Assembly: GCA_050259135.1 (NCBI GenBank)
Contig: JBLNAA010000071.1
Location: forward strand, 1-63,723
Source: Methylocystaceae bacterium
Lineage (GTDB): Bacteria; Bacillota; Syntrophomonadia; Syntrophomonadales; JBLNAA01
DNA: 63,723 bases
Direction: 5' to 3'
The notes below the pieces were generated by a model, which saw nothing but the letters and a program-made list of their open reading frames with translations, was not told the origin of the DNA and made no database searches. Made by a program: the position numbers and the translations under genes. Positions 543 to 63,143 of this stretch are shown here, one piece after another (position 1 is the first letter of the stretch; each line of letters begins with the position of its first letter).

Positions 543-1388
543 TCAGTAGCTCAGGGTATTAAGCAGCGATTTGGGCAGCGGGTTACTGCATTTCTCAGCA
601 AACACCGGCAAAGTATGACGAACATAAAGATGCGGCAAGTGTTGAGGCAGGCAGAGAATAACTGCAGATACAGTTGTGGCCGTCTGCAATCGATTCGCCG
701 CCGCAGCCAAAATCGGCAAGAAGTCTTCTTTGGCAGCATAGAGCGGCAGGTCTAAATAGCACACCCGGCCCACGTCCGCAGGCTGTAGTTCCATATCGGC
801 GATTATGGATTCCACTTCCGGGTTACTGGAGCAGGCTGTACCTATAGCTTCCGATGTCCAGGCCTCCCACCAGCTGCTATAAATGAAATTGCCGGGAATC
901 ACCACCTTTGAACTATCGGGTGCCGAATGACCAGGGAGAAAAGTATAGGCAGCCACCTGCAACTGAAAAGTATATTCATCTTTCCTGGCCGTGGCCACCA
1001 GTTTCTCATTATCCGCCTCTATTTTTAGTTCATATCCGAGTTTCAGCCAATGGGCGCTGACTTCAGTCAGTAAAGCGGTGTCACTGTAAAGCAGCGGTTT
1101 TTTCAGGTAATCAATTAAAAGATCGAAACCATCGGCTATCTCCAATGATTTTAGATTGCGGGCCAGTCCTGCGACCATCAGCAGTGTGGCAGCGTTGCTT
1201 AATGGTTTCCCTTTTTGCAGGGTTTCCTGGGTTTTTTCCACTTCCTTAAACAACAAACCCAGGGGATGAACATTAGTCAGCTGTTTACGGTTAACAATAC
1301 CTTTTATCGGCAGGTTAGCAGCAGCTTTCATATTCTTTTTAACCCACATGGGGCCGAGATACTCTCTGGCCGTTTCCACTAATGACAT
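543..1388 (-). CDS. hypothetical cytoplasmic protein (about 281 aa)
   Basis: The track ORF 543..1490 overlaps the upstream gene by 35 nt. The internal ATG at 1388 (MSLVETAREYL...) avoids that overlap. I recognise no family motif. Confidence 0.5.
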   Translation of the reverse strand: MSLVETAREYLGPMWVKKNMKAAANLPIKGIVNRKQLTNVHPLGLLFKEVEKTQETLQKGKPLSNAATLLMVAGLARNLKSLEIADGFDLLIDYLKKPLLYSDTALLTEVSAHWLKLGYELKIEADNEKLVATARKDEYTFQLQVAAYTFLPGHSAPDSSKVVIPGNFIYSSWWEAWTSEAIGTACSSNPEVESIIADMELQPADVGRVCYLDLPLYAAKEDFLPILAAAANRLQTATTVSAVILCLPQHLPHLYVRHTLPVFAEKCSNPLPKSLLNTLSY

Positions 1389-2780: not shown

Positions 2781-2855
2781 GCGGAAGTAGCTCAGTGGTA
2801 GAGCATCGCCTTGCCAAGGCGAGGGTCGCGAGTTCGAATCTCGTCTTCCGCTCCA
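2781..2855 (+). tRNA. tRNA-Gly (anticodon GCC), CCA encoded
   Basis: Hand-folded cloverleaf: acceptor GCGGAAG/CTTCCGC, D arm GCTC-AGTGGTA-GAGC, anticodon arm TCGCC-TTGCCAA-GGCGA, T arm GCGAG-TTCGAAT-CTCGT, discriminator U, then CCA. Confidence 0.93.
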
Positions 2856-3120: not shown

Positions 3121-4425
3121 ATGAAAACTACCGTGGAGACAATAGAGAAGAATAAGGTGGCCATGGAAGTGGTTATTGACCAGGAACGCCTGGATCGTTC
3201 CCTGGATCATGCATATCGCAAACTGGCTGGCAAGGTTAATATTCCTGGGTTTCGGAAGGGCAAAGCACCCCGGCCGATTGTTGAGTCATTTATTGGTTAT
3301 GAGGCACTTCTGGAAGAAGCTCTGGAAGAAGTAGTGAATGATACTTACAGTGAAGCTATCAAGGAAAATGATATTGAACCGGTAGCTCAGCCCCATATTG
3401 ATTTGGTCAGTACGGAAAAAGGGCAACCGGTGGTATATAAAGCCACGATAGTTACCCGCCCGGAGGTTGAACTGGGTGCGTATACAGAAATCGCAGTCAG
3501 CGTACCGACCATGGATGTTACCGAAAACGATATTGAAAATCGACTTAACCTGATGCGCAATCGCTATGCGCAGTTGGAAACTGTAGATGCAGATATTCCT
3601 GCCGAAATGGGCAACACCCTCCTTATTGACTTTACTGGCAGTTTAGAAGGAGTTCCTTTCCCTGGCGGCAGTGCTGAAGATTATTCACTGGAGCTGGGCT
3701 CTGGACGTTTTATCCCTGGCTTTGAGGAGCAATTGGTAGGGGCCAAGACCGGGGAAGACGTACAGGTTAATGTTACCTTCCCGGCTGATTACCATAGTGC
3801 TGATCTGGCAGGTAAAGAAGCAGTTTTTGCGGTTAAGGTAAAAGAAATAAAGCGTAAGGTACTGGCAGAATTAAGTGATGAGTTTGCTCAGGAAGTAAGT
3901 GACTATGACACCCTTGATGAACTCAAAGAAAGCATCAAGAAGAGTATGGAAGAAATGGCAGTCGTACGGCGTAAGCAGCTGGCAACTACCTCGGTTGAGG
4001 ATCAAGTCATTGCTAATGCCAGTGTAGATATACCAGAGGAAATGGTTCAAAACCGTACCTATCAGATGATTGAGCAAATGGGAGAACGTCTGGCTTACCA
4101 GGGCCTCAGCCTGGAAGAATATATGAAGAGTACCGAAACCAGCTGGGAAGATCTGGAGAGTGAGTTTAAAGCCGATGCTGAAAAATTAGTCCGGCGGGAA
4201 CTGGTGCTGCTGGCGGTAGCCAAAGCTGAAGGTCTGACTGTCGATGAAGAAGATTTTGAAGAATCAATGAGCAAAGCCGCCGCTGATTACGGGGTATCAG
4301 TTGAAGAGGTTAAGAAATCGGTAGCTTCATCCCGTAAGCGAATTGAAGAGGGTATTCTTCTGGATAAGGCTGCTGAATTCTTGTATGAAAAGGCTCAGGT
4401 TACCGTTGAGAATACAGCCGAATAA
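3121..4425 (+). CDS. tig: trigger factor (ribosome-associated PPIase chaperone)
   Basis: 434-aa ORF with SD GGGAGGAG upstream. Contains NIPGFRKGKAP (ribosome-binding motif region) and the FKBP-type segment IDFTGSLEGVPFPGG. Shows tig-clpP-clpX synteny. Confidence 0.95.
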   Translation: MKTTVETIEKNKVAMEVVIDQERLDRSLDHAYRKLAGKVNIPGFRKGKAPRPIVESFIGYEALLEEALEEVVNDTYSEAIKENDIEPVAQPHIDLVSTEKGQPVVYKATIVTRPEVELGAYTEIAVSVPTMDVTENDIENRLNLMRNRYAQLETVDADIPAEMGNTLLIDFTGSLEGVPFPGGSAEDYSLELGSGRFIPGFEEQLVGAKTGEDVQVNVTFPADYHSADLAGKEAVFAVKVKEIKRKVLAELSDEFAQEVSDYDTLDELKESIKKSMEEMAVVRRKQLATTSVEDQVIANASVDIPEEMVQNRTYQMIEQMGERLAYQGLSLEEYMKSTETSWEDLESEFKADAEKLVRRELVLLAVAKAEGLTVDEEDFEESMSKAAADYGVSVEEVKKSVASSRKRIEEGILLDKAAEFLYEKAQVTVENTAE

Positions 4426-4474
4426 GATTAACCAAGCCTGTAATATCATTATAGGAAGTAAGGGGGTATAGGGT

Positions 4475-5077
4475 ATGTCATATCTGGTTCCCATGGTAGT
4501 TGAACAAACCAATCGTGGTGAAAGGTCTTACGATATATATTCTCGGTTACTGAAGGATCGTATTGTTTTCTTAGGAAGTCAGGTGGATGACCAGGTGGCT
4601 GACCTGATTATTGCCCAGCTGTTATTCCTGGAAGCAGAAGACCCGGATAAGGATATACATCTTTATATCAACAGCCCAGGCGGATCCATAACTTCTGGTA
4701 TGGCCATTTTTGATACCATGCAGTATATTCGTCCTGATGTGTCGACTATTTGTGTGGGGATGGCTGCCAGCATGGGAGCATTTTTGTTGGCTGCCGGGGC
4801 TAAGGGCAAACGGTTTGCCTTACCGAACAGTGAAATTATGATTCATCAGCCGGCGGGTGGCACCCAAGGTCAGGCAACTGACATTGAAATTCATGCCCGG
4901 CGTATAATAAAGATGAAGGAACAATTAAATCGTATATTGGCTGAAAGAACGGGGCAAAGTCTGGAAGCTATAGCACGGGATACCGAAAGGGACCATTTTA
5001 TGACCGCCGAGGAAGCCAAACAATACGGTATCGTTGACGAGGTCTTGGTGAAGGCGCGGAATACAGGTAAGCGCTAA
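4475..5077 (+). CDS. clpP: ATP-dependent Clp protease proteolytic subunit
   Basis: 200 aa. Contains [29 protein letters not shown] (active-site Ser) and MIHQP (His). Confidence 0.97.
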
Positions 5078-36961: not shown

Positions 36962-37064
36962 CTTCTATGGCGGTTTTTGCATTTTTGCAACCGCGCGGAA
37001 CAGGTTTGAAGTGGCTTTAAGTCCACCTGTCTTCCGGCGAGTATAATGAATGTGGAGGTGTACC
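36962..37064 (+). promoter_or_regulatory. structured 5' leader of rplU (position and shape consistent with the Firmicute L21 ribosomal-protein leader)
   Basis: Two hairpins by eye: GCGGTT...AACCGC (about 36971-36995) and ACAGGT-TTGAA-GTGG-CTTTAAGT-CCAC-CTGT (about 37001-37031). They lie just before SD GGAGG. Confidence 0.45.
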
Positions 37065-59362: not shown

Positions 59363-61822
59363 TTACTTTACCACGATATTGACCAGTTTTCCTGGCACAA
59401 CTATCACTTTGACCACTTTGCTGCTGCCCAGCAAATCTTTGACTCTGGGCATAGCCATTATCAGAGCTTCAACTTCCTGGGAGCTCAGTCCATTTGGTAT
59501 CTGCACCCGTTCTTTGACTTTGCCGTTTATTTGGATAACAATTTCGATTTCATCCTTGATTAGAGCTGTCTCATCCCAGGAAGGCAACGGCGTGTTGCTC
59601 AAGGTAGCCTTATGCCCGGTTGCCTGCCATAATTCCTCAGCTACATGGGGAGCAAAAGGCTCCAGTAAGGAGACCAGGGCTGATGCTGCTTCGGTTAAAA
59701 TCGCCGATTTGGCAGTTGCCAGTTCCTTGTAGCCAAACAGGTCATTCACCAGTTCCATGATGGAGCTGATGGCAGTATTAAAATTAAAGCGTTTTTCAAC
59801 GTCATCGGTAACCTTTTTAATCGTATAGTGAATACGGTAGCGCATGGCCTTGTCGTCAGCGGTAAGATCACTATCAGCCTGCCCCTTGGATTCATTTAGC
59901 TCCATTACCAGCCGCCATACCCGGTTTAAGAAGCGGTAGCATCCCTCAACCCCCTGGTCGCTCCATTCCAAATCACGTTCCGGAGGAGAGGCGAAAAGGA
60001 TAAACAAGCGGGCAGTATCAGCACCGTAACGGTTGATTATGTCTTCCGGGCTGACTACATTTCCTTTGGACTTTGACATCTTGGAACCTTCTTTGAGGAC
60101 CATACCCTGGGTTAAGAGGTTGGTAAAAGGCTCCTGTACTTTTACCAGGCCGGCATCATAAAGCACTTTAGTAAAGAAACGGGCGTACATCAGGTGGAGA
60201 ATAGCATGCTCCACGCCGCCGATGTACTGATCCACACTCATCCAGTAATCAACATCTTCCTTATTAAACGGCAGTTCACTGTTATGGGGACTGCAGTAAC
60301 GCAGGAAGTACCAGGAAGAACAAACAAAGGTGTCCATGGTATCTGTTTCCCGCTTGGCCGGCTTGCCGCATAGCGGACAGGTGGTGTTAACAAAGTCTTC
60401 AACATAGGTCAGGGGTGATTCCCCGGTCGGCCGGAAAGCTACATCTTCAGGCAACATTACCGGCAGCTGGTCATATGGTACCGGAACCGGGCCGCAGTCC
60501 GGACAATAAACCAGGGGAATGGGAGCACCCCAGAAACGCTGACGGGATATCAGCCAATCCCGCAAGCGGTAATTAATCGTACCAGTACCAATACCGAGCT
60601 GTTCCATTTCCTTAATAACAGCAGTAATACCTTCATCCACGGAATAGCCGTCAAACTCACCAGAGTTGGCCATTTCGCCCTCACCGGTGTAGGCTTCGGT
60701 CAGAGCATCACCGTCAAGATTTTCACCCTCCGGTTGGATGACCACCCGGATCGGAATGTTGTATTTGCGAGCGAAGTCGAAGTCGCGCTGGTCATGGGCT
60801 GGCACTGCCATAATGGCGCCAGTACCGTATTCAATTAATACATAGTTGGCAATCCAGATTGGCACCTTATCCCCATTCATCGGGTTAATGGCATAGGCAC
60901 CAGTAAAGACGCCTTCTTTTTCAGCTTCGGTGGAAGTGCGGTCCAGTTCGTTTAAGTATTTCATCCGGTCCTGGAAAGCTTTAACCGCTGCTGCTTCCGG
61001 TTTGCCGGCTACCAGTTTATCCACCAGCGGATGCTCGGGAGCCAGCACCATATAGGTTACTCCGAAGATGGTGTCCGGGCGCGTGGTAAAGACCGTCATC
61101 TTATCATCCATACCATCAACGGCAAGCTCAAACTGGCAGCCGGTAGAACGGCCAATCCAGTTGCGCTGCATTATTTTTACCTTTTCCGGCCAGCCCGGCA
61201 ACTGCTCCAGGTCATTGAGCAATCTTTCAGCATAAGCGGTAGTTTTAAAGAACCACTGTTCCAGGTAACGCTTTTCCACTGAAGTTTCACAGCGTTCACA
61301 GGCGCCATCCACTACCTGCTCATTAGCCAGTACGGTTGAGCAGGATGGGCACCAGTTGACCGCGCCCTGTTTTTTATAGGCCAGTCCCATTTCATAAAGC
61401 TTTAAGAACATCCACTGCGTGAACTTATAGTAATCAGGTTTACAGGTGGCCACTTCCCGATCCCAATCATAGGATATTCCCAGGCTTTTAAGCTGGCTGC
61501 GCATATTATCAATATTGGAGTAGGTCCAGATGGCCGGGTGGGAATTATTCTTAATAGCGGCATTCTCAGCCGGCAGCCCGAAAGCATCCCAGCCCATCGG
61601 ATGAAGTACATTAAAACCCTGACGGGCTTTGAAACGGGCGATAACATCACCAATGGCATAGTTACGAACATGTCCCATATGCAGATTGCCGGATGGGTAG
61701 GGGAACATTTCCAGATTGTAATACTTGGGTTTAGAGGGGGCGGTTTCTACTTTAAAAGAATGTTTCTTTTCCCAGTAAGATTGCCATTTCGGCTCAATAG
61801 ACTTGAAATCATACCGATCCAC
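59363..61822 (-). CDS. leuS: leucine--tRNA ligase
   Basis: 819 aa. Contains [11 protein letters not shown] (HIGH) and KMSKSKGN (KMSKS). GTG start 7 nt after AGGAGG. Confidence 0.97.
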
Positions 61823-61937
61823 TTTACTACCTCCTGGGTATTAATAATGAGCGCTTGCGCGAATTATGCGCCAAAATGCGGGTGCTTTAGCACCTACAAT
61901 GTGCATTTTGTGTGCATCGCACCGCGAGATAAATAGC

Positions 61938-62236
61938 AAAAAGTCTTCCTTCCCCAAAGGGACGGAAGACTAACTTTCCGCGGTACCACCCTGATTGACA
62001 GATAAAATGGTGGAGATGAGGGGATTCGAACCCCTGACCTCCTGCATGCCGAGCAGGCGCTCTCCCAACTGAGCTACACCCCCACGTCACTGTCCGCTTG
62101 ATGGCTATAACGTTACCACCGGCAGTCACTACTAATTTCGCAACTGCAGCTCCCCGGTGAGTTCAGCGTTGTTTGCTGGCTCACACCTGCCGCCAGCTCT
62201 CTGTATAAAACGCCTACTGCTCCGTCTCATTGCCAA
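61938..62236 (-). promoter_or_regulatory. T-box riboswitch leader, Leu specifier (CUC), interrupted by a tRNA-like insert
   Basis: On the minus strand, Stem I carries AATGAGA (GA motif), AGTA (S-turn), the AGAGAG bay and the distal loop GGCAGGTGTGAGCC. The specifier loop reads GAA-CUC-A (CUC at 62161-62159). An F-box-like CGTTA lies at 62112-62108. The T-box core AATCAGGGTGGTACCGCGG lies at 61996-61978. The terminator AGTCTTCCGTCCC-TTTG-GGGAAGGAAGACT plus TTTTT spans 61971-61938. Confidence 0.85.
62008..62083 (-). tRNA. tRNA-Ala-like (anticodon GGC, G3:U70, CCA encoded, C at position 33), embedded in the leuS T-box leader
   Basis: Hand-folded 76-nt cloverleaf: acceptor GGGGGTG/CATCTCC (with G3:U70 and G5:U68), D arm GCTC-AGTTGGGA-GAGC, anticodon arm CCTGC-TCGGCAT-GCAGG, variable loop AGGTC, T arm AGGGG-TTCGAAT-CCCCT, discriminator A, then CCA. 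Confidence 0.8.
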
Positions 62237-62257
62237 TTTATGCGGTTAACAATGAAC

Positions 62258-62286
62258 AGTATATAATCATTTGGGGAGCTAGTCAA
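62258..62286 (-). promoter_or_regulatory. sigma-A-type promoter of the leuS leader
   Basis: On the minus strand: TTGACT (62286-62281), 17-nt spacer, TATACT (62263-62258). Confidence 0.6.
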
Positions 62287-62469: not shown

Positions 62470-62531
62470 AAGACAAAGGCGTCTTTAAGATTGGTGGTGT
62501 AATTAGGCACCCTGTCTTAAAGACGTTTTTT
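62470..62531 (+). promoter_or_regulatory. ANTAR-type leader: two small hexaloop hairpins competing with an intrinsic terminator
   Basis: P1 is AAGAC-AAAGGC-GTCTT (62470-62485). P2 is GGTGT-AATTAG-GCACC (62496-62511). The terminator stem CGTCTTTAAG (62480-62489) / CTTAAAGACG (62516-62525) is followed by TTTTTT. The P1 3' arm is the terminator 5' arm, so the two folds are mutually exclusive. Confidence 0.5.
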
Positions 62532-62576: not shown

Positions 62577-63143
62577 GTGGTGCCATTGGCGGGCAAAATC
62601 TTAATAGCAGACAGTACAGGTATTCAACGAGCGCAGATCGCAGATGCCCTAAAACATGCGGGATATCAGGTTGTGGCTGAGGTTGGTGATATGGGTCAGG
62701 CGTTACGAAAAACGCGTACTCTGATGTGCGATCTGGTAATCATCGATTCGGCACTTGATGGTGGTAAAGGCATCAAGACTGCTCAGATTATTGACGAAGA
62801 CCAACTGGCAGCTGTCCTGCTGCTGGTAAACCGGGAAGTTCTGGTCAATGCGACCCGATTGCCGTACCTGGTCAAACCAGTTTATGACTACACTCTGATT
62901 CCAGCTGTAGAAACGGCACTACTCTACTGGCAGCGGTACAGCCAATTAAAGAGTGAAATATTGAAACTCGAGGAAAAACTGGAGACCCGAAAGTTAGTTG
63001 ATCGAGCTAAAGTGATGATAATGACCAAATTACATTTAAGTGAACCTGAGGCTCACCGGTTCTTACAAAAGGAGGCCATGAACCGCGGTTTGACTCTCAT
63101 GCAAGTAGCCCGGGAGGCAATACGACGCCTGGATGAGAAATAA
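62577..63143 (+). CDS. ANTAR-domain response regulator (REC + ANTAR RNA-binding antiterminator)
   Basis: The REC domain carries DLVIID (acceptor Asp region). The C-terminal ANTAR helices read [39 protein letters not shown]. The start could be GTG 62577, GTG 62580 or TTG 62586. Confidence 0.88.

Follow-up and report, generated by a model that had tools for sequence, protein, structure and literature searches.

The window, as we call the whole stretch of DNA analysed here (63,723 nucleotides), carries a gene for leucyl-tRNA synthetase, leuS, on the minus strand at positions 59363-61822. The gene was identified by homology and is predicted to encode a protein of 819 aa from a GTG start; the closest named homologues of this LeuS belong to Syntrophomonadaceae (about 70% identity), while two MAG proteins reach 87%. 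All the features described below lie on the same strand, and their coordinates are given in the direction of transcription. Upstream of leuS is a promoter-like site of the sigma-70 type, TTGACT-17 nt-TATACT (62286-62258), with 10 of 12 matches to the consensus. It is followed by a leader that matches the T-box covariance model RF00230 from 62239 to 61955, over the whole model (1-219), with 116.3 bits against a gathering score of 93 (E 4.7e-25). In the aligned match, 84 inserted nt that contain a tRNA fall in the Stem III loop. The leader had been estimated at about 315 nt in the initial annotation; the RF00230 span is 285 nt. The GA/K-turn motif of Stem I, the specifier loop, the AG bay and the distal loop were aligned to the model at high posterior probability. 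The specifier loop, located from the sequence and from the RF00230 alignment, reads GAA-CUC-A (62164-62158), in which the Leu codon CUC (62161-62159) precedes the conserved purine. This specifier agrees with the amino-acid class of the downstream leuS, the presumed regulated gene.

The region 3' to the specifier begins with AAGCG (62099-62095), corresponding to the RRRxG motif, and GACAG (62094-62090), the 5' strand of the Stem III closing helix. The 3' strand of this helix is CTGTC (62001-61997), followed by AA and the T-box core AAUCAGGGUGGUACCGCGG (61996-61978; RF00230 model positions 183-200). The flanks AAGCG-GACAG...CUGUC-AA fit the RRRxG-Stem III-AA motif, which is part of the T-box discriminator (PMC7583486). 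Between the two strands of the helix are TGACGT (62089-62084), which forms the tRNA 5' leader and places U at position -1; a 76-nt tRNA-Ala(GGC) with an encoded CCA (62083-62008), found by both ARAGORN and RF00005; and a 3' trailer, TTTTAT (62007-62002). The 5' spacer had been given as the 7-nt GTGACGT and is corrected here to 6 nt. The T-box bulge is UGGU (61988-61985), and helix A2 begins with a G.U pair. The window contains no tRNA-Leu gene with which the discriminator base could be compared; bacterial tRNA-Leu carries A73. Downstream of the core is an intrinsic terminator, AGUCUUCCGUCCC-UUU-GGGGAAGGAAGACU followed by a U-run (61971-61938), an inverted repeat with 92% complementarity. Its 13-bp interrupted hairpin (61971-61942) has a free energy of -23.8 kcal/mol, and the 5' strand of the hairpin overlaps the 3' strands of the antiterminator (helices A1/A2), making the two folds mutually exclusive. 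A scan for terminator-like sites overlooked this terminator, owing to an internal mismatch in its hairpin.

When the sequence was re-read, the promoter, the T-box landmarks, the specifier, the strands of Stem III, the core and the terminator were all found where the initial annotation had placed them. The nesting that it had proposed was also borne out, with the RF00230 match spanning the tRNA detected by RF00005 and by ARAGORN. An independent promoter or terminator that parts the tRNA from either half of the leader would have spoken against nesting; a scan for promoter-like and terminator-like sites found none from the leader promoter to the tRNA, and none from the tRNA to the T-box core. Judged from these sequence features, the leader is most likely a working Leu-specific (CUC) T-box transcription attenuator of leuS.

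The tRNA itself was called as tRNA-Ala(GGC) by ARAGORN, at 62083-62008 inside the Stem III insertion, and matched RF00005 with 65.8 bits against a gathering score of 29 (E 4.5e-12). It has G3:U70 (62081/62014), A73 and the anticodon GGC at 62050-62048, and is 84% identical across 76 nt to E. coli genes annotated as tRNA-Ala. Thus the earlier description of it as Ala-like, and as mismatched to the Leu specifier CUC, holds. It had also been called flawless; the cloverleaf is indeed complete, but the tRNA has C33 (62051) and a G5.U68 wobble. U33 is near-universal in elongator tRNAs and is present in 63 of 65 distinct related copies; C33 recurs in loci L017 and L121, the closest relatives of the window. 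Together, C33 and G5.U68 are unexpected for a heavily used elongator tRNA. The presence of C33 in this clade lowers our confidence in normal decoding by the window copy, while the class as a whole is unaffected. The codons GCC and GCU make up 72% of Ala codons in the long ORFs of the window, which indicates a high demand for the GGC anticodon. A site for RNase P is predicted between 62084 and 62083. The cloverleaf did not emerge from minimum-free-energy folding, whether of the entire leader or of the tRNA alone; we treated this as the usual weakness of such folding on tRNAs, and it is covariation (below) that carries the argument. Weak matches to tmRNA and permuted tmRNA were discarded, as they reflect merely the tRNA-Ala-like domain. 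A possible pairing of a leader GCC with the nested anticodon was likewise dropped, since this GCC, in the linker of the window leader, is absent from the relatives.

The arrangement had been regarded as a singular oddity. A collection of one genome per species, 185,579 species in all, was searched with a pattern independent of tRNA type: GTTCRANTCY (T-loop), a gap of 14-44 nt, and GGGTGGNACCGCG (T-box core). About 34 chance matches to this pattern are expected over the whole collection, and at least 120 matches were found. Among the 120 matches listed, 104 had an ARAGORN tRNA over the match, which in 104 of 104 cases was tRNA-Ala(GGC), and four more had the same tRNA clipped at the end of the locus. 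The nested tRNA/T-box arrangement is therefore present in at least 108 species genomes. The other matches listed were a decayed remnant in Symbiobacterium (L097), which retains the terminator region but, of the tRNA, just the 3' half; three ordinary T-boxes with a chance T-loop-like word (L019, L043 and L105); one locus with a tRNA 3' end clipped at the locus start, whose type is not assignable from the remaining sequence (L047); and seven chance matches without a T-box. The carriers are independent assemblies and include cultured strains. Those listed comprise about 29 Syntrophomonadaceae, including Syntrophomonas wolfei subsp. methylbutyratica, S. palmitatica and Thermosyntropha lipolytica, as well as Peptococcaceae, Thermacetogeniaceae, Desulfofundulus and Desulfitispora. 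About 39 carriers among the matches listed are Chloroflexota (Thermomicrobiales, Chloroflexia, Anaerolineae, Ktedonobacter, Caldilineae and Sphaerobacter), and further phyla represented there are Armatimonadota, Coprothermobacterota and Caldisericota.

Full-length RF00230 matches spanning the tRNA were obtained for 19 loci besides the window, from different phyla. Seven of these reach the RF00230 gathering score and ten fall below it, with 48-91 bits and E values from 1e-7 to 1e-18. The remaining two are L122 and L124, which came from a metagenome scan with the N-terminus of LeuS. That scan returned mostly LeuS from taxa without T-boxes; informative in it were only L122 and L124, which have the tRNA, and L135, which has a T-box without one. 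In L135 a leuS T-box with a CUC specifier has a 259-nt leader and a plain, longer Stem III hairpin, and this locus shows an example of the insert-free state.

The context of the nested tRNA is as constant as its type. By regular expression, 96 of 105 leaders have a GAA-CUC-R specifier at an unvarying distance, and a CUC specifier, either displaced or slightly variant, could be seen by eye in most of the remaining leaders. The first downstream gene is leuS in at least 76 loci. Elsewhere the first ORF encodes a class IV aminotransferase (ilvE-like), an AMP-binding enzyme or an alpha/beta hydrolase, and leuS is present behind such first ORFs wherever the locus is long enough. Since leuS lies downstream in all sufficiently long loci, these leaders can be taken as one orthologous leuS-operon leader. 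At least 15 loci from Chloroflexota have a tRNA-Ala(CGC) gene on the same strand, just upstream of the 5' domain of the T-box. The order there is tRNA-Ala(CGC), Stem I/II, tRNA-Ala(GGC), discriminator, and leuS or ilvE-leuS, so that in these loci the riboswitch is interleaved with an alanine tRNA cluster. No second tRNA-Ala(GGC) gene was found in any of the loci examined, which are segments rather than whole genomes. Far from being a singular case, the arrangement is a widespread conserved class at one orthologous leuS locus, and it looks old.

The comparison of related leuS leaders that the initial annotation had proposed showed the insert to be conserved, with covariation both in its cloverleaf and in the Stem III helix that closes around it. 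G3:U70, A73 and the anticodon GGC are each present in 105 of 105 copies of the tRNA. A CCA is encoded in 80 of these and absent from 25 (24%), and position -1 is U in 68. Covariation was assessed on an alignment of 65 distinct sequences with 21 cloverleaf pairs. All 1365 of the 1365 cloverleaf cells (100%) are standard pairs, and compensatory changes are seen in 16 of the 21 pairs. Covariation scores 0.496 on this alignment; sliding the 3' partners lowers the value to 0.04-0.10, and 0 of 500 shuffles reached the observed value. Across the 65 distinct copies there is no variation at U8, A14, G18, G19, A21, G53, T54, T55, C56, A58 and C61. Alanyl-tRNA synthetase (AlaRS) recognises G3:U70 and ignores the anticodon; the invariance of GGC therefore points to decoding. 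Invariant GGC together with the invariant identity pair is as expected for a charged, decoding tRNA rather than a scaffold. Use of the 25 copies that lack CCA would need 3' cleavage and CCA addition, and for the same reason these copies have no ACCA to expose in cis.

For the flanking T-box, Stem III was anchored at RAGNG on the 5' side and, on the 3' side, at an AA lying 2-4 nt (usually three) before GGGTGG. With this anchoring, 80 distinct flank pairs were compared. The six closing pairs are 79% paired, against 25-60% in slid controls; their covariation score is 0.60, against 0.09-0.22 when slid, and compensatory changes occur in six of six pairs. Examples of the closing helix are GACAG/CUGUC, GAUAGG/CCUAUC, GGUAAAU/AUUUACC, GUCGGU/ACCGGC and GGCCAG/CUGGCC. 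A search for the Stem III helix without anchoring, in which the register sometimes slipped, gave a mean of 6.2 bp against 4.9 bp in a cross-locus control. Just past the core, 85 of 104 loci have a terminator-like hairpin with a T-run, the criteria being a dG no higher than -10 kcal/mol and a hairpin end no more than 3 nt from the T-run. The 5' spacer is between 0 and 27 nt long, and the distance from position 73 to the T-box core is also widely variable. In some loci the closing helix abuts the acceptor stem (5' spacer 0-2 nt), a geometry that could slow cleavage by RNase P. Over a shorter evolutionary distance, the window, L017 and L121 (LeuS about 87% identical) have the promoter hexamers and the entire T-box in common. 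Within the leader, conservation in this clade is highest in the tRNA, where 1 of 76 positions differs among the three species, while divergence or indels are seen in the unconstrained parts of the region.

These leaders share with canonical leuS leaders of the RF00230 family a Stem I with CUC, a Stem II S-turn, Stem IIA/B, the RRRxG-Stem III-AA motif, the UGGU bulge, competing antiterminator and terminator folds, and leuS downstream. They differ in that Stem III, a short hairpin in the canonical leaders, has as its apex a complete 76-nt tRNA gene. T-boxes with genus-restricted stem-loop insertions resemble them in tolerating large structured insertions in or near the discriminator, with cleavage affecting the fate of the mRNA; however, those insertions are plain stem-loops, whereas the insert described here encodes another functional RNA, and its conservation extends across phyla. 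Genes for tRNAs expressed from the promoter of another gene are familiar from rRNA operon spacers (tRNA-Ile and tRNA-Ala(UGC)) and from E. coli tufB, with which tRNA genes are co-transcribed. Release by RNase P and 3' processing, as in those cases, would apply here as well. Those tRNAs lie between functional units, while here the tRNA is inside a helix of a regulatory RNA, and its excision would split the riboswitch. The nearest analogue that we found is GOLLD RNA, which can have an embedded tRNA, for example tRNA-Phe in Mycolicibacterium GOLLD (PMC12990946). In both cases a tRNA sequence is nested in a large structured non-coding RNA, but GOLLD is not a cis-regulatory switch and the type of its embedded tRNA varies; here the mechanism of the host RNA is known, and the type and the site of the tRNA are fixed. 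As to cleavage of leaders, PMC7913692 describes the Bacillus subtilis thrS T-box leader as cut just upstream of its terminator, with the remaining hairpin stabilising the mRNA, and RNase P as reported to cleave riboswitch leaders such as pbuE. An endonucleolytic cut upstream of the leader terminator, parting the sensor from the mRNA, would be common to those leaders and to the ones considered here. The thrS and pbuE cleavage sites are not tRNAs, whereas in the present leaders a genuine substrate of RNase P and RNase Z would supply the sites.

From the sequence comparisons we think it probable that this is a leuS T-box attenuator with a bona fide tRNA-Ala(GGC) gene as the apex of Stem III, and that its leader doubles as a tRNA precursor. 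Of the three readings put forward in the initial annotation, the leader as precursor is the best supported, because the cloverleaf, the AlaRS identity elements and the anticodon are very strongly selected across phyla. The leader promoter would fire constitutively, and one promoter would serve both functions. Stem I/II, with its capture of tRNA-Leu, would be transcribed first, followed by the 5' strand of Stem III, the tRNA, the 3' strand of Stem III and the discriminator. The tRNA would fold independently, as a closed module, at the tip of Stem III that faces the solvent and is known to accept insertions (PMC7583486). Uncharged tRNA-Leu would stabilise the antiterminator, and the terminator would otherwise form, the decision presumably being co-transcriptional as in other T-boxes. 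Terminated and read-through transcripts would both contain the tRNA, the 5' end of which would be cut by RNase P. The 3' end would be made by exonucleases where CCA is encoded, and by RNase Z with CCA addition where it is not. The product would be a mature tRNA-Ala(GGC), likely to be aminoacylated and used in decoding. As a side effect, excision would part the decoding domain from the discriminator and the mRNA, after the decision has been taken, and the read-through mRNA would then start just upstream of the terminator/antiterminator hairpin.

An alternative use of the same cleavage is that the tRNA is kept mainly as a processing handle for RNase P and RNase Z, integral to leuS regulation, with usable tRNA-Ala secondary. 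Excision would then serve to remove Stem I/II and leave a protective 5' hairpin on the read-through mRNA, and it would also destroy terminated leaders that would otherwise sequester tRNA-Leu. Precedent exists in the cleavage of the B. subtilis thrS leader and in the reported action of RNase P on other riboswitch leaders (PMC7913692), and in every locus the position of the nested tRNA is exactly upstream of discriminator and terminator. A handle, however, needs the shape of a tRNA and not G3:U70, A73 or GGC, all of which are invariant in 105 copies. We regard this explanation as unlikely in its own right; it is compatible with a dual-use leader, to which it would add a function.

It is rather improbable that the cloverleaf serves the riboswitch as a structural or regulatory module without ever being released. 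Such a module might pair its ACCA with UGGU in cis, dock its elbow on the Stem I platform, or lengthen the window for tRNA-Leu binding. In the window the ACCA is 19 nt upstream of UGGU, and the bulge would match, as A73 is carried by both tRNA-Ala and tRNA-Leu; unexplained insertions in every T-box domain have moreover been noted in a review (PMC7583486). Against a cis-acting ACCA or other fixed module, which had been offered earlier as a possible function and is disfavoured as a general one, are the 25 of 105 copies without an encoded CCA, together with the widely varying spacing from tRNA to T-box core and the 0-27 nt range of the 5' spacer. Under the steric-sieve model (PMC7583486), an internal ACCA, from which the chain continues 3', would be rejected like a charged tRNA. 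A scaffold or delay element would not need an invariant anticodon or AlaRS identity. The possibility that a recent insertion has disabled or altered leuS attenuation, or that the locus is an artefact of assembly or chance, has nothing more in its favour than the unusual architecture and can hardly be entertained. The same architecture in at least 108 species genomes, from independent assemblies and with cultured strains among them, argues against both. Scores for the T-box and for the tRNA are far above chance, and Stem III covaries around the insert; with a terminator-like hairpin in 85 of 104 loci, these observations refute the earlier suggestion of a recent, disabling insertion. True decay looks different, as the Symbiobacterium remnant illustrates.

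The constant pairing of Ala(GGC) with Leu(CUC) is most simply seen as a frozen accident at the ancestral leuS locus: loss of the tRNA from Stem III would be the loss of a needed tRNA, and the pairing would thus be frozen. A functional link behind the pairing is also conceivable. More tentatively, and with some doubt on our part, the leader may be an obligate and ancient two-in-one RNA, in which excision resets the T-box, by parting the decoding domain from the discriminator, and sets the stability of the read-through mRNA, and which is the main or only source of tRNA-Ala(GGC), the reader of most alanine codons.

No account of a T-box with a nested tRNA gene was found in full-text literature searches or in T-box reviews and databases; older comparative papers might mention one. 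To our knowledge, this would be the first riboswitch with a functional gene for another RNA within its own fold. The tolerance of T-box Stem III for a 76-nt folded module is useful for structural work and for engineering. A built-in cut by RNase P and RNase Z between sensor and message is predicted, which opens the long-standing question of T-box leader turnover to direct testing, and several cultured carriers exist for experiments. The insertion also creates a blind spot in annotation, as it pushes the T-box below the Rfam gathering score in 10 of 20 related loci tested. As a rare leuS-linked structural marker, the arrangement is common to Bacillota, Chloroflexota, Armatimonadota and other lineages. 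If the leader is a tRNA precursor, the aborted transcripts of the attenuator would be productive tRNA precursor rather than waste. If it is in addition the obligate two-in-one RNA described above, the control of LeuRS, the supply of tRNA-Ala and the turnover of the leader would be coupled in one transcript across several phyla, and its spread would reflect either descent from an early ancestor of these groups or its transfer along with leuS.

The tRNA-Ala(GGC) nested in the leuS T-box leader of the window carries C at position 33 (62051), where 63 of the 65 distinct related copies among the matches listed have U, and a G5.U68 wobble pair (62079/62016). Both features are common to the window and the related loci L017 and L121. 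LeuS is about 87% identical between the window and these two loci, and only one of the 76 positions of the nested tRNA differs among the three. The variant is thus stably kept rather than a product of decay. L017 is also one of six carriers of the arrangement (with L006, L020, L048, L096 and L108) whose record titles give the source as Methylocystaceae, proteobacterium, Bacteroidales, Desulfarculaceae or Bdellovibrionales, but whose leuS genes and leaders are Bacillota- or Chloroflexota-like. The odd labels probably reflect mis-binned MAG contigs.

In the window, the leader terminator is separated from the leuS ribosome-binding site by roughly 85 nt (61845-61930) that contain small hairpins and repeats, namely TGCACA...TGCACA and GGTGCTAAAGCACC. 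L017 shares this stretch with the window but L121 lacks it, so the spacer is prone to indels. On the other side of the leader, the divergent intergenic region that precedes a plus-strand ORF (62577-63143) contains a 16-nt inverted repeat (62475-62490 / 62515-62530) for which an alternative pairing is possible. The repeat is conserved in L121, where the corresponding ORF encodes an ANTAR-domain response regulator and genes for glutamine synthetase and glutamate synthase come after it. An Rfam search gave no match for 62475-62530; the repeat may be a leader element of the operon that begins with this ORF. Other RNA elements of the window are an L21 leader (RF00559, 44 bits; 36979-37054, plus strand) and a tRNA-Gly(GCC) gene (2781-2855, plus strand). 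In L122, a leuS locus from the LeuS-based metagenome scan, a c-di-GMP-I riboswitch (851-937, minus strand) adjoins the leuS leader.

Full-length T-box matches spanning the tRNA scored only 48-91 bits in 10 loci (L053, L005, L089, L042, L064, L028, L103, L096, L012 and L091), against an Rfam gathering score of 93; annotation with the curated threshold would leave these leaders undetected. The discriminator base of bacterial tRNA-Leu is A73, and the nested tRNA-Ala likewise has A73. In L036, L073, L086 and L103 the T-box bulge is nevertheless UGGC, not UGGU; these four loci lack the usual match between bulge and discriminator base.

In 15 Chloroflexota loci (L020, L021, L033, L036, L040, L044, L052, L054, L059, L068, L080, L096, L112, L116 and L119), the nested tRNA-Ala(GGC) is preceded, on the same strand and at a distance of about 75-360 nt, by a tRNA-Ala(CGC) gene. 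In most of these the T-box 5' domain comes immediately after that gene, so that the two alanine tRNA genes are separated by this domain. One of the 15, L119 (Anaerolineales; 4300-4720, minus strand), consists of a promoter-like site, tRNA-Ala(CGC), an 80-nt spacer, tRNA-Ala(GGC), the T-box core with its terminator, and leuS. Neither Stem I nor a specifier is recognisable in this interval, and the Rfam search returned no T-box match; L119 looks like a derivative without the decoding domain. Upstream of leuS in a Symbiobacterium thermophilum MAG (L097, 1-360), three elements are left: the 3' half of tRNA-Ala(GGC), from the anticodon arm through CCA; the 3' strand of Stem III; and the antiterminator/terminator, matching positions 188-215 only of the Rfam T-box model. 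With GGGGACGGCC-type repeats in place of the 5' part of the leader, L097 looks like a relic of the T-box/tRNA arrangement.

Downstream of the leader, 15 loci have an extra gene, of one of three kinds, between the T-box/tRNA leader and leuS. An ilvE-like gene occupies this position in L012, L028, L051, L056-L058, L064, L080, L094 and L112, a gene for an AMP-binding enzyme in L023, L065 and L114, and an alpha/beta hydrolase gene in L020 and L024. The presence of these genes ahead of leuS means that the same leader controls small operons, for example ilvE-leuS.
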